NCBI GenBank assembly: GCA_017654855.1
Contig: CM030332.1
Span: 4,092,001-4,156,000 of the forward strand
Reading direction: 5' to 3'
Source: Podospora anserina
Taxonomy: Eukaryota
DNA length: 64,000 bases
Of the stretch, positions 33,063 to 52,416 are shown piece by piece. The notes under the pieces were generated by a model that did no database searches, was not told where the DNA came from, and was given only the letters and a program-made list of their open reading frames with translations. Each line of letters begins with the position of its first letter. The stretch's first letter is position 1. The position numbers were made by a program, and so were the translations under genes.

Positions 33063-36000
33063 TCAAACCTCACCCACAACCTGCCTATGGTCCCTAACCA
33101 CGCTCTCCACGAACCTCACAAACCCCTCCCCAAACCGATCCATATCCTCATCCCGATAAAGCACAGTGCAATGCTGCATAAAAAACCCAAACTCCCCCTC
33201 CCCCCCCTCCACAACCTCAAGCACCAGCTCGCAAGGATGTCCAATATTATACAACCGATGAACCCCCACCTCAAAATCAGCATGCCTATACTCCCACGGC
33301 GCACCACCATGCATCTGGAAGTTAATCGCCACCTGCCCCAGCGGCATATGCCCCTCTGGTCTGTTTTCCTTTCCAACCACACGATCGACAATATCATCAA
33401 ACGACACCTCCGCATGCTCCAACGCCTCAAGCGTGAGGTCCCGAGCGGAGGTTATGACATCTTCAAAGGGTGTCTGAAGGGAGCAGTCGTTGTTGAAGCG
33501 GAGAGGGAGGACGTTAGCTAGGCAACCGATCACAGACTCGACGTCGGGGTGGGGACGGTTGCCTTCTAGCATTAGGATTGTGAAATCTTTGTCGGCGGTG
33601 TGCCGGAACAGGTAGGCTCGCCACGCAGCGAGGAGGAAGTGAAAGGGGGTGGAGGAGAGGTGGGCGCAGATGCGCTTTAGGCGTTTGGAGAATTTGGAGG
33701 GGAGTTGGGTGGTGAAGTGACGGCGGTGGGTTTGCCAGGTTGAGGGGCGAGTTTTTCGCTGGGCGAAGGGGAGGAGGGTGCCGGCGGTTGGGAGGTTGGT
33801 GAGCTCTTGGGTCCAAAAGTCTAGGTTTGCGAGGGCTGGTGGGAACTTGAGGAGGGTGTTGTGCCACTGGGCGAAGTCCGCAAAGGTGATGGGTGGGGAG
33901 GGGACCGTGTCGAGGTCTCGACTGGAGCGGATCGCGTCGTAGAGGTCCATCCAGTCATCTGAGAGGATTGTGAAGCTGGCTCTGTCGAAGCAGATGTGGT
34001 GGGCGATGAAGATGACAAAGTACTCGGTTTCTGATGTTCTAACGAGGGTCATAGTTGCTACTTCGCCTTTGGCTATCTCGAGTTGTTGGTTTCGAAGACG
34101 TGAGATGATGATCTGGAGCTCTGTTTGAGGGGATGTGGTATATGATACGTCCTCAATGATCAGATGGCATTTCGGCTCTGGCGATGGTGACTGAACGAGC
34201 CGGTTGCCGTCTTGGACGAATGCTGTGCTCAGTGCTTGGTGCCGTCGTACAGTCTCGTGGAAGGCTTTTCCTAGTGCAGGTAGATCTGGGTGGCCACTGA
34301 TGCGCAGGACACCACATAGGTTCATCTGAGACTTGTCTTCGGCGCGGACATGGCGAGCATACATTCTCGCTTGGTGAGTTGACACTGGCACCGGACCAGA
34401 CGTTTGGAGTCTCGGGATGTGATCCAGCTTCCTTCTCTGATCATGTTGGCCATTGATAACACTCGCTGATGTCTGCTTCTCACCCGAACATGTCTTCACA
34501 CGCTCCTCGCTCGAAGATACTGCTGCAACAGGCATCGACGCCACGACCTTTTCGACCAGCCCCTGAATGGACTTTGCACCAAGTATATCAAACAGCGAAA
34601 GGTCAACTACGGCAGTTTCCTTGAACCATTTCCGGAACTCGACAGCCACGATCGAGTCGAGGCCATAGAATGATAACGGGTTGGTTGGCAGAATGCTCTC
34701 TGTTGGTGTGCTCAAGCCTGTTGCCACTTTCTGGGTGAACGCTTGCTGTAAGACGGCAGTCTTGTCCTCAACGCTCCCTGCGGATGCGAGGAGGCTTGCC
34801 GTGCTCACTTGACCAGCTGCAGCACCGCTGCCGGCCCCGGTGCCATACGATCTGTTGGCATATAGTGTGCGGAAGACGGACCGCTCCGACCACCAAACAT
34901 CAGGCTCCTTTGTGTTGACGCCGACAATCAGCTGATGCCAGTCGAGGCCATCTGTGGCGGCATCAGGCTTCTTCAGCTGTACTGCTTCCTCATTCAAAAA
35001 CATGAGTTCTTGCTCCGTGAGGATATCGAGCTTGTTTCTGTCGAGGCTCTTCCTGACAAGCTCATTCTCAGCAACCAAGCCCCTCGTGGGCACAGCACCA
35101 AGATTCATAGCCGTTCCGACAAGGCCCTGCTCCCGTCGCCAGCGCATGAAGGCATCCATGTACGCATTGGCGGCAACATAGGCTCCTTGTCCCTTGTTAC
35201 CGCAGATGGCCGACACCGACGACCAGCAGACGAAAAAGTCCAAGTCGATGCCCAACGTTGCTGTGTGCAAATTCCACGCACCGGTGCACTTGGTGTGCAG
35301 CCCGGTCTGGTACTGATCAAACGACAACGACCTGATCATGCCGTCCTGTAGCACAACCGCAATATTGAAAACGCCAGCCAGCGAAGGACCAATCTCCCGA
35401 ACGACGTTCTCAACATCAGCCAAAACACCCACATCCCCCTTGTAAACACTGACCTCAGCCTTCCTCGACCTGAGCCAATTCACCGTCTTCCTCCCATTAC
35501 TACTCTGATCCCCCGACCGGGACATGAACGCAAACCTCCTCGCCCCACGAAGATACATCCACTCCGCCGTCGCCGTCCCCAGCTCCCCCAACCCCCCAAC
35601 CAAAATATACGTCCTATCCCCCTTGAATAACAGCTCTGATCATAACTCGGCGGGGCAACCATCACCTCCTCCTCCTCATCAACAGTAAGAACAACCTTCC
35701 CCGTATGCCTCCCCAGCTGCATCAACCGAAATGCCTTCTCCGCCTGACCATAAGAATACTCAAACAACCCCTCAGGCGGCCTCACCTCCCCAGAAAACAC
35801 CATCTCAAACGTCTCCCCCAACAACCTCGCCGCCAGGGGTTTATCCAACTCATAAACCAAAATCATATCCACCGAAGCAAAACTGACATTCCTCCTGAAC
35901 GGATCCATCCCCAAGTTCGAATTCTGATGTATGTCCCTCTTCCCAATCTCGACAAACCTCCCAAACGGCGCCAAACACCCCCACGTGGCATGAAGCAGTT

Positions 36001-39000
36001 TCCCAGCCAGACTATTAATCACCACATCCACCCCTTTTCCTTCCGTCGCCTCCATCACCCCCCTCACAAAAGAATCATCCCTCGAATTAAACACCTCCCC
36101 CTCCCCCATCCCATACCTTTCCCTCATCAACCCCCTCTTCCCCTCCGAACAAGTAACCAGCACCCTCGCCCCGATATTTTTCGCCATCTGAATCGCCACC
36201 TGCCCAACCCCCCCAGCAGCACTGTGTATCAGAACCGTTTCTCCCCTTTGCAACCGTCCAACCGTGAAAAGCGAATAAAACGCCGTCGTCATCGTAACGG
36301 GCAGACTCGCCCCCAAAGAAAATGACATTGTGTCAGGTATCTTCACGCACATATCACCATCCTGACGAACAAAAGTCTGATGTGCCCCCTGGCCAGGACG
36401 GTAAGCTACCACCCGGTCCCCAGGGGAAAGGTTAGTAACGGAGGCGCCAACGGCGGTGATGACACCCGCGCATTCGTTGCCCATGTTGTAGTCTTGGATT
36501 ATCCCCAACGCTACAGCCAGGTCGTGGAAGTTGAGGGCGGAGGCTTTGACACGAATGAGGACTTGTTTATCACCAAGGGCGGTGTTGTCTTGGGGGAGGG
36601 GGACGAAGTGGAGGGTTTCGAGGAGGCCGATTTTGCCTACTCGGAGGGCGAGGGAGGGGTGGGAATTGTAAGGTGAGGGTTGGGGGAGGCTGCCGAGGCC
36701 GGAGGGGAGTTTACGGTTGAGGGGGAGGTCTTCTTCTATGCGGGGGATGTGGAGGGTTGTGTGGTGGAGGGAGAAGTCCTCTTCTGAGGCGGTTGACAGG
36801 CAGGGGAGGATCTGTTTTGTGATGAGAGCGGGGGAGGTGGAGGGTTGGATGTCGAGGGAGAGGAGGCGAGAGGCTTGGTTTTCGTTGCGGGCCACGCGGA
36901 GGAGGCCGAGGATTTTGGCGTGAGAGGGGTTGGTGGATTGGATTGTTGCGTCGAGGGTGAGCCAGAGGAGGGTGATGTTTTCAAGGGTGAGGAGGTGGCG
37001 GGTGCCGAACCATTCTGAGGGGGGGTCGATGGGGTTTGGGTGGTTGTAAAGGCTGCTTAGGACTACGACGTGCTTGGGGGCGAGATTATGAGCGGTGACT
37101 TCGTTTATGGTGGTGGTGGTAACTGAGGCGATGTAGGGGGATGCCTCGAGTTCTTCCAGGATGGCTCGTGTTGTTTCCGAGGAAACAGTTGGTAGGACCA
37201 CTGTCAAGTCAATCTGAGCTGTGGAGACGTTGGTTGCTGGGCGATAAGCGGTCCATTCGGAAACGGTTGCAACCGGTGTCCATTCCGTAAGAGACTCGCT
37301 GGTGACAACCACAGCATTGCTGGCAAGTGATGTTTGCAGTGCCTCAGGAGAAAGCTCAGCGTCCTTCCCCACGATAACGAGATCATACCGGCCTTCTGGC
37401 CTACCCAACACATCAAACCTTTCCGGCCACTGAGTTTCCTCGCTCAGAATATGCAGAGTCTCATACAGCGGTCGGCCCGTGACTGGCACTGCCAAATGAG
37501 CCAGCAGAGCTTCAGCCTCAGAGTATTTCATAGCCAGCAAAATCCTCGAAGTAGGATGCTGAAAGGTATACAACCTCACCAGCCCCCAACTCCCCCCTCA
37601 ACCTCGGCCCCCTCCAACAAATCAAAACAAGACTGCCACCTCTGCCGGAAAAACAACGCCCTCCCCTGCATCTCCTCCACCCCCTCCACTTTTGTCAACG
37701 ACCTCAACCCCCTCGGCTCGCCATACTCAACCCAAATCCTCCCATGGCAATGCCTCGTCTCCAGACCCTCCTCAAAACTCGAAACCTCAAACTCGAACCA
37801 CTCCTCCGAAAACGTCCTCGCCGACTCCGCCACAGGCCTCAGTTCCAACACCGTCTCCGCCCCCTCGTCATGGTCTTCCCTCAGAGTAAGCGGGGCTTTT
37901 ATCAAGACCTCCTTCAGATGCACCGCGGCAATGCTTTCGTTCCTACGGTCCCCAAGTCTGACTGCCGCTTCAATAGCCATACAGCAATAACCCGCCGCGG
38001 GGAAAACCACCTTCCCATCTACACAATGATCTCTCAACCAAGCGATCTCACGCAACCGGATGTAATTCCTCCACCTTGGGATGTGATGAACCCCCCCCGG
38101 AACGGGAACTCCAAGAAGTGTGTGTCGTGTTTCGCGGTGGAGGTGCTCAGTGGTGAGGCGGTTCAAAGACCAGTAGTTCTTGTGGTTCCACGCGTGAGTT
38201 GGTAGATCCACGAGGCGGTTGCCAGGGCCGTTGATGACTGGTAAATCAACGGGGTATCCGAGAGTAAAAAGCTCTCCTGCTGTGCTAAGAAGGGACTCAT
38301 ATGCCGAGCGGTCACGAGAGAGTGTGCCGAGGTAAGGGGTCTTGTCTAGCTCGAGTAGTTTGAGGACTTCTTTAGCGGGAGCTTTGAGGGCTGGGTGAGG
38401 GCCAATTTCAAGAAGGATATCCACTGTTGGTTTCTCCTCCTCATCCAGAACCGCTCCAGTGAGAGCGTCAGAGAACCGAACTGGTTGGACCATGTTTGCT
38501 GCCCAGTACCCCGGCCCGAGCGACCCGGAGTCGGAGACGACACGGGCAGTGACACTAGAGAACATCCTAGCGGTAGGCTTCTGCGAACAAACAACCAACT
38601 CCCTCCCTTCCAGCGCGGCCTGATACCGCGGAGCCATGGGAGCCATATGGTGCGAGTGAAAAGCTTGCTCGACTTTCAACTTCCGGGCAAACGCCTTCCG
38701 AGCAAGCAACTTCTCCTTCAACTCCGTGACTGTGTCCAAGTCTCCCGAGACCGTCACGCTAGAAGGGCTGTTGATAGCCGCGATAGTGAGCCGGTCTGCA
38801 TACGCCCCCAACTCAACCTTTAGCTCAGCTGCTGACAGTCCCACCGCCATCATCGCCCCTGGGATGCAGTCTGCTGCTTCAAGGCCAGCAGACATGTACA
38901 ACCCACGGTAGTACGCCGTGACAATCGCCCCCTCAAGCGACAAAACACCCGCCGCATACGCAGTTGCTATCTCACCAGACGAATGCCCACACACCGCCGA

Positions 39001-40975
39001 CGGCTTCACTCCCCAATCAGACAACAAGTCAACAACTGCAACCTGAACAGCCGTGCACACCGGCTGCGAGAACCTGCTTTTAGAAAGCCGCGACCCCTCC
39101 TCATCACGAAGGAGCTCATCAACAATCCTCCAGTCAGGTTATCAGGCAACGTCTGTAAAGCCTCATCGCAACGCTCCAGTGTTGCCCGGAACGCTTCAGA
39201 GTGAAGTATCAACTCCCGGCCCATGTCATATGTCTGGGCACCCTGGCCCGTAAAGACATACCCTACTCGAATAGGCTGTTCACTGTCGAGAGGTTGAGTC
39301 CATTTAGCGCTTGATGCCCCGGATGAAAGGGCGTCGGCTAGCTCTTCAACACCAGCCCCCTGTGACAGGACAGCAAAGGTCCTGTTGCTGTGCACTGAGC
39401 GGCGTGTAGAGAAGCTGTGGGCTAGATCACGGATAAGCGTCTGCTGATCACCCCCCTTCTTGCTGCTGAGGTAACTGGCGAGGTTGCTGATCGCTTTCTC
39501 GCCGGCTACCTCCGAGTGTGAGGTGAGCGGAAGCAGGTACGGCCGCGTCTTGGCGTTGTCAACACCATTGACTATGACAGTTGGGGAGTCAAGAGGTTGT
39601 TCAAGAACAACATGGACATTCGCACCGCCATACCCAAAAGAGTTGATGCTTGCCCGGCGCGGCTTTCCATCTGACTCGACCCAGTCCAGGGCAGAAGTGG
39701 GAACCTTGAGTTTCCACTCGTCAAAGAGTATCTCCGGGTTAGGCTTGTGGAAATGCATATTGGGCGGGATCTTGCCATTCTGAATAGCCAACGTCGCCTT
39801 GATAATACCCGCAAGACCAGCCGCGCCTTCCAAATGTCCAATATTGGATTTGACACTGTCCATATAAAGCGGTCTCGTGCGGGTAGACGTGCCAAAGACT
39901 TTACCGATAGCAGCAGCTTCACGAGGATCGCCCGCCTTGGTCCCCGTTCCATGAGCCTAAGGTATGTATATCTGTAAGCTCCCATCCAAACCACACACCA
40001 CCAACAAGTCAAACTCACCTCAAAATACCCCGTATCATCCGGATCAATCCCCGCCCTCCCATACGTCTCCCTAATCAACCCCTCCTGCAACTCCGCCGAC
40101 GGCAGCGTAATCCCATCCGTCTTCCCGTCATGATTAACCCCACTCCCCCTCACAACAGCCCTCACCCAATCCCCATCCCCAACCGCCTCCTCCCTCCTCT
40201 TCAGCACCACCGCACAAACCCTATCACACCTCACATACCCCTCCCCATCCCTATCAAAACTCCTACACCTCCCATCAGAACTAAGAAACCCCATATCAGT
40301 CATAGTCTGATACGTATTCGGCCCAAAATGCAGTGCCGACCCAACAACAACAGCCATATCCGCCTCCCCACTACGAAGGGACTCACACACCCGAGATGAA
40401 ACGCCGTCAGACTGGACGAACACCCCGTGTCAACCGTCATGCTCGGCCCGTACAGATTATACATGTACGAAATCCTATTACTAAGAATGGAATTCCCCCT
40501 CCCAGTGATGGCGTACCTTGGGGTAGTACTCCAAGTCCTTGTTCTGAAGGTTGTGGTAACCATTGGAAGTGGTGTACATCCCACAGTAAACCGACGTGCG
40601 CGAACCCCTGACAGAAGCAAGGGGGATTCCCCGGTCTTCGAGGGCTTCGTAGGTTACTTCCAGGAGGAGACGCTGCTGGGGGTCCATCGCCTCGGCTTCT
40701 TTGCCCGAGACGCCAAAGAACTCGGCGTCAAAGTCGGCGAGGGGCTGGTCGAGAAAGTAGCCGTGCTTGGTGTTGAGCGTGCCTTTGTGGGTGTGGTCTG
40801 GGTGGTAGAAGGCGTCGATGTTGAATCGGTCGGGGGGCATCTTGCGCTGGAGGTCGATCTGGCTGAGGATGTTGTCCCAGAGACGGGCTGGGTTGATGGC
40901 TCCGGGCACCCGGCAGGCCATGCCGATGATGGCTGGGGGGTTGGGGTGTTTGTCTCTGCTGGTGGAGCTTGCCAT
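33063..40975 (-). pseudogene. Disrupted highly reducing polyketide synthase with terminal condensation domain (KS-AT-DH(partial)-psiMT-ER-KR-ACP-C)
   Basis: [90 protein letters not shown] and YVAAN; ACP GLDSI; C domain HHICFD. Frame breaks near 40517, 40386, 39140, 37590 and 35637; intron 40018-39957. Confidence 0.9.
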
Positions 40976-42288
40976 TGTGTCTCGAGTCCTGGCGGTGTTT
41001 GGGATTTGATAGAATGAGGTGATAGCCAGGTTGTTGAAGGGTCTATGAAGACACGACTATAAGCCTCTACAACAAGCAGGTTAGAAACGAGAGCTTTCTG
41101 AAGAGTGAGAACCAATGGCTTTTTAAACTTACCAGGTAGGTAGGTAGGTTAGACCCTCACCCGCCGGTGAGGTGACCCGCGTCTATCGGCCCGCACGTCG
41201 TGTCTAGGTTGTCCTACACATTCATGCCGATCCCCGTCTTTGATCCTGTATATCAACAGCAGAACTTCCGTCTCACACATCAGGTTGTACTACCACTTGC
41301 TCGTCAACCTCGCCATCTGCCCACAACAACTCATCTGATACCCCTCATCCTCCTTCCTACCCAAGACACCTCACCCATGGTCCCCAATAACAACCCCCTG
41401 ACGCCATCACGAAGTCGCCCCCCCTACCGAAAGCCGCATCTCCGGATCTCCCCTTCAAGCACCAAGACGCGCGTTCCCTTCCCCTCCACACTCGGTAGCT
41501 TGACCTCTTCCAGACAAACTACTGCGCGGTAATATACTCATGTGTTGATAAACTTGATAGTCGTCCACCTCTCGGAAAGGCAACAATACCGCTGTCGAGT
41601 GTCTTTGCGTGTGATCGAGACGAAACAATAGTAATCATAACTTGGGAGGGTGGTATAGTAGTGAGACAGTAGTTTCATTTCTTATATGCAGGTCCTCTGT
41701 AAGCCGATGCCCCCGCCCTTTGTAAGCGGCAGAAAAATAGAGAGAAAAGAGAAGGAGCTAGTGGGTTGAGATGGCATGGTCCAAACTAAGGTTCTTGCTG
41801 AGGTTAGAAGAGTAAAACGAAACGGCCCAGGAAGTCGCCAAGTTGATACGACCTCTGGTTTGAGAAAAACAAAACGTAAAAAGGCATGTCGGTCGTCGTT
41901 GAGGTTAGCATTGCCATCGTGTATACAGTCGGCATCTCAGTAAGCGTTGCAACGTGGGTAAGGCATGTGTCATGTGCAGAAAATGTGAATATCAAATTTG
42001 TTTATTTCAAAACTCCTAGCTGTTTCCTTTGCCAGGTAGTCAAATCAAAATGCTATTAAAAGATAATACCAGCAAACACGTGTAAGCAACGTCGCCGTAG
42101 CGTATCAAAGAAAACGCCATGTGATCCAAGACAAATGAAAACCCCGCGTCCCCATACTCATCGTTGTTATCGTAACCGCGCATTCATGTGTGTATAATGC
42201 CGCTTATCAAAGATCATCGACGGCATAAAACTTCATTAGATGTCCTGTCATCCATCATCCATCTGTCACTCGTGACTGTGGAAAAGTC

Positions 42289-43716
42289 CTAGGCAGTCAC
42301 ACTGCTTCCCATCGAGCCCCATCGGAACCTCCTCAGCGTTCCACCGGATGTGGACTTGACCAGCTCGCGCCCACAGCTCGCAGAGGTGTTTGACGCCGAA
42401 CCAGCAGCGCTAAAGGAACCCAGCGCACTCCCCTCTTGCCGACCTACCTCGCGCCCAATGACATAGCCTGCCCCAAACCCTACCACGGAAACCAATACCA
42501 CCACACCAGCGCTCACCACCCAAGTCATGAGCGTCGGGCTGAGGAAGGTTGCTGTCTCCCCTTCGGCGAATCCAGGTGAGCTGGTCTTTTTCTTCTTGAC
42601 AGCCCGTGAGGATTTCGTCTGGTTGGTTGCGCCACGCTTGTGCTTCTCTGCCGAATCCTGTTGCTCCTCCTTTCCTCTGCTCGACGTGGAGCACGGGACA
42701 CTGGGAGCACTGGAGTTGGATGCGGTTCGAAGTGGAGCCTTGGGCGGCCCGCCGGATCCGCCAACGGAGGGCGGAGGTGGGCCTTCGGCCAGGAGCTCCG
42801 ATTCGGGAACGAGCCTCAGCTCCATCGGTTGCGAGCTTGGCAGGATACCAACCCCTGCACCGAGTCCACCCATGCCGGCATTTGAGGGTCCGGCTCCACG
42901 TCTCTCATCGGCCTTTCCTAGACCACGAGCAGCCTGAGCACACGACAGCAGAGTCGTGAGTGAAGCACGAAGCGCGGCGTCGTGATCGGCTTGGTAGGCA
43001 GGTGACATGAAATTCGGGTGGCCGCGATGCGTACGGGTGTGTGAGCGGTGAGGCATGGGAGGCCGTGATTGGGGTGGGTGGTGAGGAGGTACTGAGCTGG
43101 TTGAGTGGCGGTGGGTTAGGTGTGATGGCGGGTGCGAGAAGGCATTTGGCTGTGGCCTGAATGCGGGCGCATCTGACGGGCGACCAAGGGCGGTCGCATT
43201 CTCGTCGTCGTCACTATCAGTATCGATATCTATGGCCCGGCGGACAGTAGTCTGGTAACGCAGCAGATTCGCCGAGGGATGCACTGCCTCGTTTGAGCTC
43301 GTCATAACTCTATCCTCTTCACTCTCCGTCTCGTCATATTCTTCCTGGCTGCTGGTAGCGCCGCCACGACTGGAGGGATGTCCGATAACGAAAGATGCGG
43401 GCATTGGCCGGTGCTGTTGCGACCTCCTCCGCCTGGGCGGGTACGAGTTGGTGCCGACCCTGAGGCCCGTAGTTACGATTTCATCTCCGATAGATGACAA
43501 GGACGAAGACGACGGCTGCGAGGCTACTTCTACCCACGACTCTGCATGTTCAAAAGTTAGTTTATTGGCGAGATGGATATCACTCTCGATGCAGTACTGA
43601 CCATCATATCGGCGACGCGGCGATGTCCCGTCAGATCGCCCCGTGGCCCCCGCGCTCTCCGGAGCATCGCCATACAGCCCTCCCGGCCCGGCGCCTTGAG
43701 AATCGTAGGGCCCCAT
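42289..43716 (-). CDS. Uncharacterised disordered protein with a C-terminal membrane anchor and N-terminal LIR/AIM-like motif
   Basis: 475-codon ORF containing a probable in-frame 60-nt intron (43601-43542; GTCAGT...CTAAC...CAG). Single hydrophobic segment WVVSAGVVVLVSVVGFGAGYVIG near the C-terminus. Confidence 0.85.
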   Translation of the reverse strand: MGPYDSQGAGPGGLYGDAPESAGATGRSDGTSPRRRYDGQYCIESDIHLANKLTFEHAESWVEVASQPSSSSLSSIGDEIVTTGLRVGTNSYPPRRRRSQQHRPMPASFVIGHPSSRGGATSSQEEYDETESEEDRVMTSSNEAVHPSANLLRYQTTVRRAIDIDTDSDDDENATALGRPSDAPAFRPQPNAFSHPPSHLTHRHSTSSVPPHHPPQSRPPMPHRSHTRTHRGHPNFMSPAYQADHDAALRASLTTLLSCAQAARGLGKADERRGAGPSNAGMGGLGAGVGILPSSQPMELRLVPESELLAEGPPPPSVGGSGGPPKAPLRTASNSSAPSVPCSTSSRGKEEQQDSAEKHKRGATNQTKSSRAVKKKKTSSPGFAEGETATFLSPTLMTWVVSAGVVVLVSVVGFGAGYVIGREVGRQEGSALGSFSAAGSASNTSASCGRELVKSTSGGTLRRFRWGSMGSSVTA

Positions 43717-46700
43717 CGTAAACGCAAGCTGTTTATTGGATGGACAACAGGTCTTTCAAATGCTTGGTGATTTGTTGTCAAGTTGTAGCCCCGTGTTTGT
43801 TGGTTTACGGCGCGCTCCGGTTTGGTGATAGCTGTCCCCCTTGGCTGGTCCCCGCCCGGGCAAAGTGGAGCCGTGAACAAGGAGACAACCTGTCTGACAG
43901 GATGGTTCGATGAACAAACGAACAGTGCGGGGAATGGGTTGACGTTGACGTTGACGTGCGACGCCGGGAGCCAGGTATCGTGGATGAGTACTCTGTTGGT
44001 GAAGCGAGGTTGAATTCCTGATAGTCGATAGGTTCGTTGAGGCTTTGTCGTTCTTTGTCCCTCCAGCCTCGATGGGCGAGTGAGCATGCGCCGGGCTGGT
44101 TGAAGCTTGGCAGAACGGACGGGAGCGTGCCAGTGGCCGCCGTGAGGGCGTGGGTTGGGGCTGGCAGGTCGGCGTGACCAGACTAGCTTGTTTGGGGAAA
44201 AGTGGAGAGGTCATCCTGGGCCATCCTGCAAGCTCATTCGCTGCTCACCAGCTCAACCATCCCCACTTGCTTGTCTGCTGGACAGGGTACGCTTCTGTCC
44301 AATGACGCGATGGTTTGCTGATTAGCAGGGGTAACGCGGCAAGAGGTGCGATAACGATAAGATGCCAGAGGTCTGAGACGATTTACTGCGTAGAGATGCA
44401 ACCTGGGATGCTTACCAGCTGCGTGAGGTCGCAATAACAAAAGGTTTAAGATCAGTAGATGGACTGATAGTGGCATACATACATCATTCCAGAATTGCCA
44501 TCAGTTAGAAGTCCGAAGAAATGTGATTCAGGCGCAAGACGTCATCATCTAGGCAACTTCTCGTTACCGGACGGCTCTCGCCCAGTGCCGGGCCGGGTGA
44601 ATGAAAGGCGGAAAAGGCCATGTCACGTCGATGAAGATTCTTGCCTGATAATAAGCGCAAGGATGGCGTCCTCAGGCATCATGAAATGTACAGCATTATG
44701 AACATCCCTCAGTCGCCAGAACAGACACGTGCCTGGGTCAGCACCAAGTCGAAACACCTCTGCCGTGCTTCTCCTTTAGGAAATTGTGTGCTCACCTACT
44801 TTCCTTCTGAGAGATCTGGATGCCACACACTTGGATAATCCTTACGATCGATTTGCTGCCCTATGCGACAGTTGAGCCTCCCTCAAGCAGTCATCACGAT
44901 GAACACAAGATGACTGGAAACAAACTGCGGGGGGAACACCTGCTCGACAGCAGCCCCGCTCCGGCTCCGCAACCATGAACGAGAGGTTTTCTTTCTTTTT
45001 CCTTTCAGCCCAGACGACACACACTTGCACGTATTCGGACACAGAGCAAATAAGTGGTTTGTCTGGGTTCCTCGGATGAAGACATGGTGATGTGATAGAG
45101 GGGGTGATGTCTCGGATAGCTGAGGTTGTCATGGAAGTTGGTCTGACTCCCGACTGTCTCTCTACAGCACAGCACAGCTGCAGAAGCATCTGCAGCCTCC
45201 TGCAGAGACCTGTCCCAATGGTCGGCGATGTTTGGTTTCTAGGTGGTCCTTCAACCACGACTACCACGGCAGCTTGTACAGGCCAAATCCATGATGGATC
45301 GGTGTGGCTTACGTGCTTCGAAAGCTGGATGGCTCACAGGATGGTTTGAAGGCAACCTCAAGATCGGACACCCCACGGCGATATTTGTCACGGACAACAC
45401 TAGCCAATGTGAGAAGGTCAGTCTCTCGGCCCGCCGGTTGACGTGGCAATAATTGCTGACGATATTTGATGTTACAGACACTACGGGACGCTGGACAAGA
45501 ACGCGGGGGACAACCCAACCGGTTGGTCATCTGAATTGGTGTTGCAAAATGCAGCATCCCAATGAGGTGGCAGGCAAACCCGTGCTCGATGGCTTCTCGG
45601 CAGTCGATTCTCGAGAGACTGGGGAAGTCGGGCGGTCATTCATCGGAGCCCGACTTGACCAGCCTAGAAGAGCCTCATGCCTCTAGTTGTGTAACATCGA
45701 GTGTGCATGAGAATTCAGGCGAGAGATTGTCCGACTCTGTGAACAGCTGCAGATGTGTCGCGTGAGAATTGAAAGCACTCGGCAAACTCACCGGTGAATA
45801 TGTTCTGAGTCGAGGTGGAAGGGGTATTCCGAACGGCGGTGTTTCATCCTGATATCTTCTGGCACGCCAGCTCGAGAAGCTTCGATGTCAATCCAAATCG
45901 AGAACCAGCAACACCATAGATTTTTGAGATAATTTGTGGCAACTAAGAGTAAAATGGAGCTATATTGGTGTAAGTGAAGGGTTGTCGTTGATTTAAGCTC
46001 CCTGACGAAAGAGCCCCAGCGTGTGGAAACTATCTCGAAGAGGGAATTGTAAATTCAGAAGACCCGTATTGCCAGCACAGCCTCCGAGCATATGCGCACA
46101 TAGCCAGGGGTAATTTGATATAAAAACGCTCACCTGCACGCCGCTCGGTCTACAGAAACACTTGCCTTCATAAAACACTTCGCAACAACGAAAAAAACGG
46201 TCAGTTTCAAGGTGTAAAGAAGAAGAACTCGTCTCAGTCGCCAACATGCTCTACAGACGACATTATTTCCAGCAGGACGTGAGTAAGCATTGGTCCGTCC
46301 TCGACCGGCGAGAGGCTTGGCAGCCACCTGCCTCTTCGACTGCCCTCCACTCCCCTACTTCCCATAAAGCACCTACCCTCCATCAAGACAAGGGTACAAA
46401 CTGATGTCTCCAGCCCTGCCAGGCAGTTTTCGATACATACATTGCCTTGCTTACCTCAGACAATCCAAGGCTGGCTTTCCACCTAGAGCCCTAATATTTC
46501 ATGTCCTTGTTTACTGTGGAATGAAGATCACTCGTATTTGCTCGCGAAATATTCAGTCAAAAGAACCAACAGTGCTGCAAACTCGGAACGCCGGCTGGGG
46601 ATGCTGGGTCCACCCGTGGAGAAGCCAGGGCGGGTGTGCGCTGCTTGCATGCTGCACCTACACTACCTACATGCATGACAGCCATCAGCAAGAAAGAACG

Positions 46701-48458: not shown

Positions 48459-49901
48459 CTAAAGAGCACCCAGATCAAGCGGCACACTGCTTCCCCGACC
48501 AGCACGATACCTCTTTGGGCCTCCCACAAAGTCCCTTGGCTTCGGAAAGTTCTCCTCACTAGTAAACTTCCACCTCGAGTCTTGTACTACGTAGCGACCA
48601 CCGCCACCTCCACTTGGACCGTGTGATAGCGACACATTCCGTGTTGGACTTGGGGTCTTGGCTCCTCCACCATTTGGCGCAAGCGTGAAATTGCTCGGAT
48701 CAAGTAGAGACGCTCGACCTGAAGCGCTGGATGGAGTATGGCTTAGAGAGGGGGGAGCTGGCGCCGCTGAAGGAGGAGGGGGTGGTGCCGGCGAGCGAGG
48801 AGCATCGTTCGAGGGAGGGGGTGGTGGTGGAGGAGGGGCTGACGCAGGAGACGATACACTGGATGCCGCACGAATTGCTGCTTGAGCCGCGATACTCTGC
48901 GAGATATTATTTGTGGCCGCGGCTGGAGCAGGCGGCGGTGGCGGTTGTGAGCGGGCTGGAGCCGGCGGTGGTCGTGGAGCTGCAGACGGAGGAGGCGGAG
49001 GAGGGGCGGGAGGAAGCGAAGGGGCCGAAAACGACGGAGGGGGTGGGGCCGAGGACGGAGGAGGGGGTGCTGGTGCGCCTGGAAGTGGAGGGGCTCCCGA
49101 AGGCTTGCGAGAACTCGGAGGTGGCGGGGGTGGCTTTTTGCCAATAATTGGCGGCGGACCTGTTTTTCGGAGATTGGCAGCCGATGGATTGAAAGCAGGG
49201 GCGCTCGATGTGCTGGGTAGTGATGGCCTTCCTGGTATAGCAGGAGCCGCCCCCACTGGAGGTCTCGGAGCGGATATTGTTGGAGGCTTTGGTGCTGACT
49301 TGGAAGATTCTGGATCTGAGAGATAGGAAGACTCTCGACTTGCTGGATGGCTGTTAGTGATACCCAACACTCATGATCAGATGCGCCTTACCACCAGTAT
49401 CAACGCCCCCACCTGTTTTGCGCAGTTTTGGCATGCCTCCAGCAAATAGGCCAGCTAGTTGTGGGGGTCCATCTGTGCTTGGTGCCGGTTGATGTCTATC
49501 ACTCTGATCGCTATTACTTCTCCCACGATTTCCAGGCAAAGGAGGGGCGAGACCGCTGGGAGCTTTAGGTAGGCCAGGAACGGGGGGGGCACCGAGAGAA
49601 GATGGGCCGGGACCTCCGCCTCCAGATACCTTGCCGATGATTGGGGCCGATCGATCGTTCGTGACAGTTTTCTTCAACGCCTTTCCTTTGCCGATGTCTT
49701 GTAGCAAGGCACCCTTCCAAGACGGTTAGTGAATTTGCTTTCCATAACAGCCAGGTCTCTCTGCCAACACACCCTATTCGGCAATCCAGCAGGCGGACGC
49801 GCCGGCAAAGCACCGCCTCCCGGGGGCGGAGGTGGTGGAGGAGGGGGAGGACCTCCAAAGCCGGGCGGCGGCGGCGGAGGTGGTGGAGGAGGAGGAGGCA
49901 T
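48459..49901 (-). CDS. VRP1: Verprolin / WASP-interacting protein, 3 exons
   Basis: Poly-Pro N-terminus, WH2 domain ALLQDIGKGKALKKTVTNDRSAP, GLFAGGMPKLRK, Pro-rich middle, C-terminal DSRWKF...FPKPR...YRAGRGSSVPLDL. Confidence 0.92.
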
Positions 49902-51081
49902 CGTGTGTTCTTCGATTACAAGGAGGCCGGCGAGTTGGGACGAGGCTGCAACAAGACGATCGGCGTCTAAGGCCAAGAATTGGAAGGGCGCGGAGTCGAA
50001 GCAGTAAAATGACGGCTATGCCGGTGCACGGTAGTTAGTCCGGGGAAAACGGTGGTAAAAGATACAGCTCAGAAATAATGCCTTCTCTTGGACGGACAAT
50101 GAAGCGGTTGGAAGTTGAAATGCGACTGCCTTGGACGGTTGGCGTAAGATGATCGGGGGGTGGTACGTACTGCGTCACTCCTGGGCACTGTGGCTCAGCG
50201 CTCCAGCAGATAAGATTACAAGCCCACTGGTTAATAAGTCAAGCCACAGTGTAGCCTTGGCACTGCCCATAGGTACTCTGCCACTACTGTATACACAAAA
50301 GGGTCTGCGTTCCAAAACCTATCAACAGTCTTTTCATGTTTGAGACAGCTTGAGTTATTCTGAGACGGTGTCATACAGCATAGTCCAAATCCAAAACCTC
50401 CCATTCTCTTGTGTACATGCTCTGATCCGAGATCCGAGATTCAAAGACGGGGAGCTATGGGGTGTTGATTGTATGTGTCACATCCGCAACCACAGTAGAC
50501 ATGTTGCTTGGACTGACTTCAATAAAAGTAACTAGATGATGGATTTACCTGTTGATTGCCCTTCTCGGCATAAAAGTGCTTAAACAAAAATTAGCCCAAG
50601 GCAGTGTGGCTGTTTTTACCCAGGTTACCGCTTCCACCCCGTTAGATGCACGCTCCAGCCAGCAAGGTGCATACAGTGGGGGTCTTCGCTCAATCGGGGA
50701 GGGGAAGCTTTGAACACACCCCGGTCACTTCAACGCCAATGCACGGATCTGCACCATCTTCTCTAGCCCAGAGAGCTCTCTTTTGACTGCAACACCAAGA
50801 TTCAACCTCACTTCTCATAAAGTTTTTTTTTCTTTCACTTAATTCCCTCTTGTACATAACACCCCCCCCCCCACCCCCCAAGCTACAATCAGCTACCCCC
50901 ACGCCCATATACGATCGATTGGTCCATTTCCGGGTGTTGTTCTGCCTCATTCGGCATCCAGACCACCCACCGTCAGTCTGGGGAAAAGAGAGTCCGTGTA
51001 GGAGACGACGCGCTAGACGGCTTCAGGACCGAGCAAAAAAAAAAAGAAGACACCTTCACCTTCCCCGCCTATTCCACAGCC

Positions 51082-52416
51082 ATGCTTCGTCGGCCGTACC
51101 AAGCCGGGCTGGGCCTGCAAGTCTGCCAGGCTTGTGAGCTTGTCTCTGGCAGACAATCGATGCGCACAGCCAAGCGTAGCTTCGTGACACTACATCCCAG
51201 CAGACGCTTGGCCAACTTATCACCACCAAAGCCTACCTGGATGAGCGCCACTCGCTCCTTTGGGACCTCGCAGACATGTCTAAAATCAAAACGCCAGCAG
51301 ACACCGCAAAGTACTACCCAGAACCCAAGCCCCTCGCCAAGCACGTCGGCCCAGGCCAGCTCACCGGTGGGGGACCAGGATGTGCCAGATTTGGAAGAGA
51401 TCATGGCTGCCGTTGACCGTACCACCAGGGAATTCACTGCCCATTCGGGGATCCCCTCTGAGCACATGACGCTCACAGCGCTGCGGGCTTGTGCGCAGAC
51501 GGATGTCAGGCAAGCAGCAGACACCCAGACCAGTCACTCTGCCGTTGCTGCGGCCGAAGACAGGCCTGTCTCGAGACTCTTGGGCTTGGAAGGTGATGCC
51601 GCAAAGGCTGGCCAATCTAGCACCTCTACTACAGTTTCTGTGCTACGGCCGGAGGACGTTGTCAACAAGGTATCGGAAGCGGCATATGCGATCGTCGCTC
51701 ATCCCGCGGTTGTTATCACCCCGCAAGTGCTGGAGGAATATGTTCGACTTCAGGCTCGCCTTGGCAGACCGCAGACACTGCCACAAGTCTTGGGTCTCTA
51801 CGGCAGCAAACCCACGCCCAAGGAAGTGTCTGGTTCCATCCGCTACACCGATTCCAACCCGGGGAGAGCGAGCAAGGCCGTGGATCCTGCCGTTGCTGAA
51901 GCTGCTCTCAATGCGGCGATCGAGGCCGATAATCTCGAGGCTGCCATTGGAGTTGTGGAAGCAACATACTCTTCCAAATCCTATCTGCGCGCAAAAGTTA
52001 TTAGGAAAGGGCTCCTTCCTGCAGGTCTAGCTGGTGCCGTGCCCTTAGCGCTCTATCTCCTGGCCTCTGAGTTTGCCCAGTTTCAGTCAGCCTGGGACCA
52101 TGCGAGCGCCACCAAGATTGCCTTTGCTGGCGCCCTTTGCTATGTTGGATTTACCGGCACAATCGGGATGGTTGCGGCCTTTACAGCCAATGATCAGATG
52201 AAGCGGGTTACGTGGGCTATAGGAACACCTTTGGGCCACCGATGGCTCTACGAGGACGAAAGAGCGGCCCTCGACAAGATTGCGTGTGCTTTCGGATTCT
52301 CAGAGGAGCACCGGTACGGTGAGGAGGAGGGGGAGGAGTATCTCTGGCTCCGGGAGTACTTATTGAGCAGGTCTATGATCCTGGATGCGGTGGACCTGAT
52401 GGAGGGTATGAACTAG
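51082..52416 (+). CDS. Hypothetical protein, probably mitochondrial membrane
   Basis: 444-aa single ORF; Arg/Ser-rich, acid-poor N-terminus; two hydrophobic segments in the C-terminal third. Confidence 0.8.
   Translation: MLRRPYQAGLGLQVCQACELVSGRQSMRTAKRSFVTLHPSRRLANLSPPKPTWMSATRSFGTSQTCLKSKRQQTPQSTTQNPSPSPSTSAQASSPVGDQDVPDLEEIMAAVDRTTREFTAHSGIPSEHMTLTALRACAQTDVRQAADTQTSHSAVAAAEDRPVSRLLGLEGDAAKAGQSSTSTTVSVLRPEDVVNKVSEAAYAIVAHPAVVITPQVLEEYVRLQARLGRPQTLPQVLGLYGSKPTPKEVSGSIRYTDSNPGRASKAVDPAVAEAALNAAIEADNLEAAIGVVEATYSSKSYLRAKVIRKGLLPAGLAGAVPLALYLLASEFAQFQSAWDHASATKIAFAGALCYVGFTGTIGMVAAFTANDQMKRVTWAIGTPLGHRWLYEDERAALDKIACAFGFSEEHRYGEEEGEEYLWLREYLLSRSMILDAVDLMEGMN

Follow-up and report, generated by a model that had tools for sequence, protein, structure and literature searches.

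Filamentous ascomycetes are described in passages of PMC8226480, PMC7711908, PMC11335778 and PMC4985598 as degrading ER, mitochondria and whole nuclei by autophagy without orthologs of Atg32, Atg36, Atg39 and Atg40. The question raised by this locus is whether a gene in the 64,000-nucleotide stretch of Podospora anserina DNA analysed here (the window) encodes a missing receptor and, if so, for which cargo. An earlier note on this DNA had proposed a tail-anchored mitophagy receptor, homologous to or convergent with animal BNIP3/NIX; its premise that filamentous ascomycetes have no Atg32 ortholog agrees with statements in excerpts of PMC8226480 and PMC7711908. ER-phagy in A. niger proceeds without Atg39/Atg40 homologs (for Atg39, none by BLASTp) according to part of PMC4985598, and for A. 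oryzae a nucleophagy receptor of yet undefined identity is inferred in a passage of PMC11335778. In excerpts of 2026 review text, MoAti1 is the only filamentous-fungal receptor named (PMC13208281, PMC13377003).

The gene lies on the minus strand and encodes a 455-aa protein by joining 43716-43602 to 43541-42289.

43602..43716, minus strand: coding exon 1, residues 1-38 and the first base of codon 39; the N-terminus is poorly conserved.
43542..43601, minus strand: intron of 60 nt, GT..AG, in frame and stop-free.
42289..43541, minus strand: coding exon 2, to the stop codon.
41984..44295, minus strand: span of RNA-like contigs, with 5' ends at 44059, 44219 and 44295 and 3' ends at 41984-41986; such contig ends are not proof of transcript ends.

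The product is identical at 455/455 residues to P. anserina PODANS_1_11880 (Pa_1_11880, B2AYQ5). The earlier note had removed the 60-nt intron (43601-43542) to obtain the N-terminus, and was right in both respects: the intron is GT..AG and in frame, exactly 43542-43601 is skipped in contigs of 3/3 RNA-like sequencing runs (three studies), and the spliced 455-aa product begins as claimed. Contigs were compared at the locus for 4/24 listed runs, with RNA status guessed by the tool and none recorded as RNA. The RNA-like contigs hold only the spliced form at the intron, and the unclassified fourth run gave a 16-kb contig that spans the stretch unbroken and keeps the intron. Retention adds 20 aa directly before the W motif described below, and 475-aa database forms exist; many automatic gene calls keep the intron because it is in frame and stop-free. 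Apart from its own exons, a genome search returned a single weak match (E 0.17), so this is apparently a single-copy gene.

Upstream of the start codon, up to about 580 nt (43717-44295, minus strand) lie under the RNA-like contigs and contain five upstream ATGs, which could allow translational control; the frame opening at 44087 extends beyond the main ATG in a different reading frame. Just upstream of the gene, 44345-44618 is covered by two short contigs of low depth that come from RNA-like runs. Elsewhere in the window, a reducing polyketide synthase that ends in a condensation domain occupies 33063-41056 (minus strand) over six overlapping frames. Its domains are KS, AT, the N-part of DH, ER, KR, ACP and C, with AT split between two frames near 39138, and the gene may be broken or intron-rich. 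A proline-rich ORF at 48459-49370 (minus strand) has no Pfam match and resembles the C-terminal part of verprolin/WIP. A 518-codon frame at 50860-52416 (plus strand), likewise with no Pfam match, begins like a presequence and has two hydrophobic stretches close to its end.

We gathered relatives of the protein by three routes. A word-based search returned 1771 proteins at E ≤ 0.001, of which the best 120 were used; a profile of 47 members gave 278 representatives at E ≤ 0.001 among 1.84 billion, of which we analysed the best 150 and left out the 128 weakest; and an extra search from a divergent member added at least 120 more rows. Members are named 'hypothetical' or 'uncharacterized' or bear evidently automatic labels. 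Those with species names fall, by what we take to be the classes of their genera, into six classes (Sordariomycetes, Leotiomycetes, Eurotiomycetes, Dothideomycetes, Lecanoromycetes and Geoglossomycetes) plus Cirrosporium. Yeasts, basidiomycetes and animals are absent from the named rows of the matches listed, many rows carrying no name, and the branching of a quick tree built from 33 chosen rows agrees broadly with the classes. Among the Pfam families shown in scans of 47 members, 96 members and four segments, none exceeded its curated cut-off. We took a weak match to Herpes_pp38 (12/96 members, best E 0.009) as a generic membrane-helix match. PDB sequence searches gave chance matches or nothing, and the ESM Atlas gave ascomycete clusters only, with no usable named match. 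The locus is thus a real gene belonging to an uncharacterised membrane-protein family common to many filamentous ascomycetes.

The receptor idea has a precedent for this family only as a table row. The S. macrospora ortholog, SMAC_02823, is one of 27 candidates from a 2021 motif screen for an Atg32 counterpart, and one of the six marked as euascomycete-only; it is not marked as seen in the authors' phosphoproteome (PMC8226480 Table S1). The candidate pursued by the authors, in the part of that paper available to us, was SMAC_04227 (PMC8226480). In the main texts of open-licence PubMed Central and bioRxiv, a scope that excludes supplements and locus tags of N. crassa, A. nidulans, A. oryzae and M. 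oryzae, we found no experiment on the family, no note of BNIP3 likeness and no ER or nuclear role; six family locus tags had no mention in those main texts. For M. oryzae, 32 two-hybrid preys of MoAtg8 have been tabulated (PMC10938464 Table S1).

The feature that first suggests a receptor lies just downstream of the splice junction.

43525..43536, minus strand: W41-V-E-V44, candidate Atg8-interacting motif, with D/E-S just before it.

The W-x-x-V reported in the earlier note at codons 43536-43525 is present, and W41-V44 is the sole [WFY]xx[LIV] in the 455-aa protein. W-x-x-V/I/L stands directly before a serine island in 326/333 rows that have the island (375 rows examined). The seven misses comprise one row with the motif elsewhere, five false island matches in truncated calls and one apparently mis-spliced call. 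Among the best 150 of the 278 representatives, W occupies the motif column in 119/120 rows with a residue there; 117 match the strict pattern, one is a variant, one is apparently mis-spliced, and 31 calls start downstream. The W fits the extended LIR pattern used for scoring in 330/335 rows, and 328/335 have no second such site. We quote motif conservation from the unselected 120-row and 333-row counts because the rows of alignment A2 were chosen for having the W motif and the membrane helix, which makes its 95/95 counts circular for these two features. The motif is conserved far beyond chance expectation. The motif keeps its two hydrophobic positions, its acidic third residue and the D/E-S ahead of it, and Atg8-family pockets select hydrophobic positions in such an acidic or D/E-S context. 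Conservation does not by itself imply Atg8 as the partner, because another six islands are conserved to about the same degree. Atg8 and Atg11 are both encoded in the genome. A complex prediction of Atg8 1-116 with residues 30-72, run without alignments or folded controls, reached 0.25 and 0.26, the mark being 0.34, and carries no weight either way on binding.

The rest of the chain is largely disordered, as the earlier note had expected of the body. AlphaFold2 (96-row alignment) gave a mean pLDDT of 53 and a pTM of 0.25, with helices only at 219-243, 285-288 and 374-411. Conservation is concentrated in islands, at residues 38-65, 101-123, 150-178, 219-243, 276-288, 338-357 and 374-401 and in a tail cysteine and a basic-aromatic tail motif. 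As had been anticipated, the W motif and the membrane helix each form a conserved island in the ortholog alignment; the note had this pair right and missed the further islands, the conserved tail cysteine and a tail sequon. The islands between the W motif and the membrane helix are as follows.

43462..43521, minus strand: residues 46-65, serine run and acidic-hydrophobic island, a candidate phospho-switch or Atg11-binding region as judged from its composition.
43288..43356, minus strand: residues 101-123, acidic Ser/Glu island with conserved Y107 (331/375 rows; Y/F in 88/95); candidate CK2-type sites, possibly FFAT-like.
43123..43209, minus strand: residues 150-178, linear island with near-invariant F166, P168, N171 and F173 (335/375 rows).
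42928..43002, minus strand: residues 219-243, helix and most conserved element (365/375 rows; pLDDT 70-82), a probable partner-binding helix.
42793..42831, minus strand: residues 276-288, small island (242/375 rows).
42586..42645, minus strand: residues 338-357, basic cluster before the membrane helix (K[KR]x[KR] in 87/96), which we take to be NLS-like.

A second N-x-T (N153; 43192-43200, minus strand) falls within a conserved island of this putatively cytosolic part.

Such an anatomy would also suit an ER or secretory membrane scaffold or tether with no receptor role, for example at a contact site or in kinase/phosphatase docking, and we regard this alternative as possible though somewhat unlikely. 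The W motif would then bind another partner, or Atg8 for the protein's own turnover only, and the helix with the other islands would carry the main function. Against this stands the W motif itself, in which the two hydrophobic positions, the D/E-S and the acidic residue are kept just as Atg8-family pockets would select them. In its favour, the most widely kept element is helix 219-243, and several islands would be superfluous in a minimal receptor. Atg43 offers a parallel, since its mitophagy function needs only the AIM and an anchor and its conserved part serves another function, according to part of PMC7609059.

The membrane attachment and the tail beyond it bear most directly on the cargo.

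42454..42537, minus strand: membrane helix, residues 374-401 (28 residues), with a small-residue zipper.
42292..42453, minus strand: C-terminal tail of 54 aa, putatively lumenal.
42382..42390, minus strand: N423-T-S, N-glycosylation sequon in the variable tail linker.
42373..42375, minus strand: C428, the sole conserved tail cysteine (exactly one Cys in 313/351 tails), a possible inter-chain disulfide site.
42316..42336, minus strand: residues 441-447, basic-aromatic tail motif (306/351 tails).

The protein has a single hydrophobic segment, with a best 19-residue Kyte-Doolittle mean of 2.3 and a next-best of 0.77. The earlier note was correct about a single hydrophobic helix, which lies at 42537-42454, and mistaken in placing it at the C-terminal end, since 54 residues follow. 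The description 'tail-anchored' is contradicted across the family, where the tail has a median length of 50 and is ≤ 30 in only two of 351 relatives. Within the helix, G/S393, G397 and G401 are each kept in 95/95 rows, continuing to G405 in 89/95, a spacing that qualifies as a glycine zipper and may indicate dimerisation; the first zipper positions are S, not G, in 72/128 representatives. The median charge over the 30 residues preceding the helix is +5 versus about 0 over the ten after it (96 rows), and this bias places the N-terminus in the cytosol. The whole tail has a net positive charge.

A sequon, N-x-S/T, occurs in the tail of 118/119 close relatives, which are related and so not independent sequences, against a mean of 27 and a maximum of 42 in 1000 shuffles. 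Sequons account for 120/138 tail asparagines in these relatives, and in the cytosolic part, with the N153 site left out of this control count, they show no excess (247 vs 244 expected). After a tail N, S/T stands at +2 in 120/138 (87%), at +1 in 29 (21%) and at +3 in 82 (59%), and N-P does not occur. The sequons lie at least 16 residues past the helix and 3-18 residues before the cysteine, and use ten different x/S-T combinations. When linkers were thinned to ≤ 50% alike, the Sordariomycete/Leotiomycete helix type retained the sequon in 30/39 (shuffle mean 9.4; 0/2000 shuffles reach 30). For the other helix type the thinned linkers gave 8/88 vs 5.3 shuffled, which is not significant, and unthinned whole tails were raised (22/89 vs 8.3 and 14/107 vs 5.9). 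There has thus apparently been selection for N-glycosylation in one large clade, which would make the tail lumenal if orthologs share a location. The pattern points to the ER lumen for the tail of Sordariomycete/Leotiomycete-type members, and together with the charge bias it supports a type II topology with a lumenal C-terminus in that type.

A sequon marks passage through the ER, not residence there. The same signal could therefore be acquired by an Atg8 receptor or adaptor that resides further along the secretory route (Golgi, vacuole, endosome or plasma membrane) or on peroxisomes, since ER transit alone is required, and paired basic tail residues form a candidate site of the Kex2 type. We identified no sorting signal for these compartments, and the basic cluster by the helix (87/96) fits the nuclear envelope at least as well, so we consider this placement very improbable.

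The sequon also changes how the likeness to BNIP3/NIX should be read. BNIP3/NIX are about half as long as the 455-aa protein and end in a tail anchor, which is replaced here by a 50-aa tail with sequon and cysteine; counterparts of the WIPI-binding minimal essential region (MER) and the atypical BH3 segment were not readily apparent in the fungal protein, which does have a conserved helix at 219-243, and there is no profile match. The resemblance lies in S-W-V-E-hydrophobic and in small-x-small-x-G-x-x-x-G-R at the helix end, both of which recall motifs of BNIP3/NIX. Convergence explains the likeness, since S-W-V-E-hydrophobic departs little from the general LIR consensus and membrane helices commonly contain glycine zippers. 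It extends to the order of parts, an N-terminal LIR-like motif, a disordered body, an internal helix and a glycine-zipper membrane helix, as given in a passage of PMC11555697.

The homology that had been suggested gained no support from Pfam, genome or PDB searches. Pfam BNIP3 (PF06553) matched 0/47 members and 0/4 segments and was absent from the 25 families shown of 40 in the scan of 96 members, the other 15 being single-member matches weaker than E 1.2. A genome search with PF06553 did not pick the locus and gave one chance match elsewhere (E 0.835), and PDB sequence searches returned no BNIP3/NIX chain. A true, highly diverged homolog is also hard to reconcile with named matches lying wholly within filamentous ascomycetes, with only 278 representatives library-wide, with serine at the first zipper positions and with the length of the tail. 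The shared order and motifs notwithstanding, we consider such descent highly improbable; very remote kinship could escape these searches, which are sequence and profile searches and less sensitive than profile-profile comparison.

Convergence on a mitophagy receptor of the outer mitochondrial membrane, as with BNIP3/NIX, Atg32 and Atg43, is a separate matter. It would fill the place left by Atg32 and would agree with the choice of SMAC_02823 by a motif screen for Atg32 counterparts, with the BNIP3/NIX-like series of N-terminal motif, disordered body and glycine-zipper helix, and with the net positive tail. Atg43 likewise has residues past its membrane helix, inside mitochondria, in part of PMC7609059. 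The tail sequon argues against the mitophagy role in Sordariomycetes and Leotiomycetes, because it directs attention to the ER lumen and its selection would be senseless in the intermembrane space. The hydrophobic stretch of 28 residues also speaks against this role, as does the WoLF PSORT result for SMAC_02823 (nucl 14, mito 3; PMC8226480 Table S1). B2AYQ5/Pa_1_11880 was not found in the examined part of a P. anserina mitochondrial complexome table (PMC8699231), a weak point because receptors are scarce, and the accession was not found in a second P. anserina supplement (PMC10886707). We judge a mitochondrial receptor quite improbable, and ER or nucleus the more likely cargo.

What survives of the earlier proposal is a membrane-anchored protein with an Atg8-family motif and a receptor-like layout; BNIP3 homology, the tail anchor and mitophagy do not. 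We tentatively favour a single-pass type II selective-autophagy receptor of the ER or nuclear envelope in filamentous ascomycetes, acting in ER-phagy, nucleophagy or both. A receptor is favoured because the W motif is kept in so many rows and because a cytosolic N-terminal motif with a C-terminal membrane helix is the layout of non-homologous receptors in an excerpt of PMC7609059. The ER or nuclear envelope is favoured because of the sequon excess in the putatively lumenal tail and the charge bias, and because A. niger ER-phagy and A. oryzae nucleophagy leave a receptor vacancy. The reading is weakened because the sequon signal is confined to the Sordariomycete/Leotiomycete helix type. It is also weakened because positive and negative charges nearly cancel in the cytosolic region, unlike in the disordered regions of receptors, which part of PMC12669772 describes as net negative. 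The many serines could supply negative charge once phosphorylated. For the nuclear envelope in particular, a tail of 54 aa is short for bridging two membranes as the lumenal part of Atg39 does.

On the favoured reading, the helix would insert so that the 373-aa disordered N-terminal part is cytosolic and the 54-aa tail lies in the ER lumen or perinuclear space, where N423 would be glycosylated. The glycine zipper, perhaps fixed by C428, would dimerise or cluster the protein. Upon starvation, kinases would phosphorylate S40, the serine run and the acidic island; W41 and V44 would dock in two hydrophobic pockets of Atg8, and the same or a neighbouring island may recruit Atg11. The phagophore would thereby be tethered to the marked membrane, which would be delivered to the vacuole. 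A more elaborate version seems unlikely: the missing nuclear-envelope/ER receptor as an independent invention, in which an Atg8 motif, an Atg11 phospho-site, an effector-binding helix, a BNIP3-like zipper and a short glycosylated lumenal tail together mark whole nuclei or ER in multinucleate hyphae.

Because the gene is apparently single-copy, spans six classes and offers one mutable motif and one mutable sequon, it makes the question of the missing receptor directly testable. P. anserina is a model for both ageing and autophagy, and S. macrospora and A. oryzae are also suitable hosts. The sequon observation shifts attention from mitophagy to ER-phagy and nucleophagy.

Among factors from filamentous fungi, MoAti1 (M. 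oryzae) and AeiA (A. oryzae) are comparable as Atg8-binding selective-autophagy factors. Both are other proteins: MoAti1 is peripheral, with a SUN domain, in a passage of PMC10938464, and AeiA is without a membrane helix and ends in a peroxisomal signal (PMC12005406). S. cerevisiae Atg32 and S. pombe Atg43 are both mitochondrial, and no homology to either was detected here (Pfam, PDB). Atg32 has a pseudo-receiver domain and an Atg11-binding region; no folded domain comparable to the former appears in the model of the P. anserina protein. Like both, our protein has an N-terminal AIM, here a candidate one, and a membrane helix near the C-terminus with residues beyond it, as part of PMC7609059 describes. 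As in Atg32, a serine-rich segment follows the AIM (compare the Atg11-binding region), and an A11BR was scored for SMAC_02823 (PMC8226480 Table S1).

With CCPG1 and TEX264, mammalian ER-phagy receptors that cross the membrane once, the protein shares a disordered cytosolic region with a LIR-type motif and acidic or serine sites, and no sequence similarity to them was found. They also differ from it in architecture, CCPG1 by its large lumenal domain and TEX264 by having its anchor at the N-terminus. An excerpt of PMC12669772 describes regulation of TEX264 by CK2. S. cerevisiae Atg39, a receptor of the nuclear envelope and ER, recruits Atg11 and then Atg8 (passages of PMC13208281 and PMC11335778). 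Homology to Atg39 is not detectable, no yeast protein occurring among the named matches listed and no Pfam match above cut-off; the cytosolic part is 373 aa and the lumenal part 54 aa, and lumenal amphipathic helices are not evident. As in available descriptions of Atg39, a single membrane pass would separate a cytosolic N-terminal AIM from a lumenal C-terminal part, the latter inferred here. On the favoured reading the P. anserina protein would work like Atg39 or CCPG1 while being a member of neither family.
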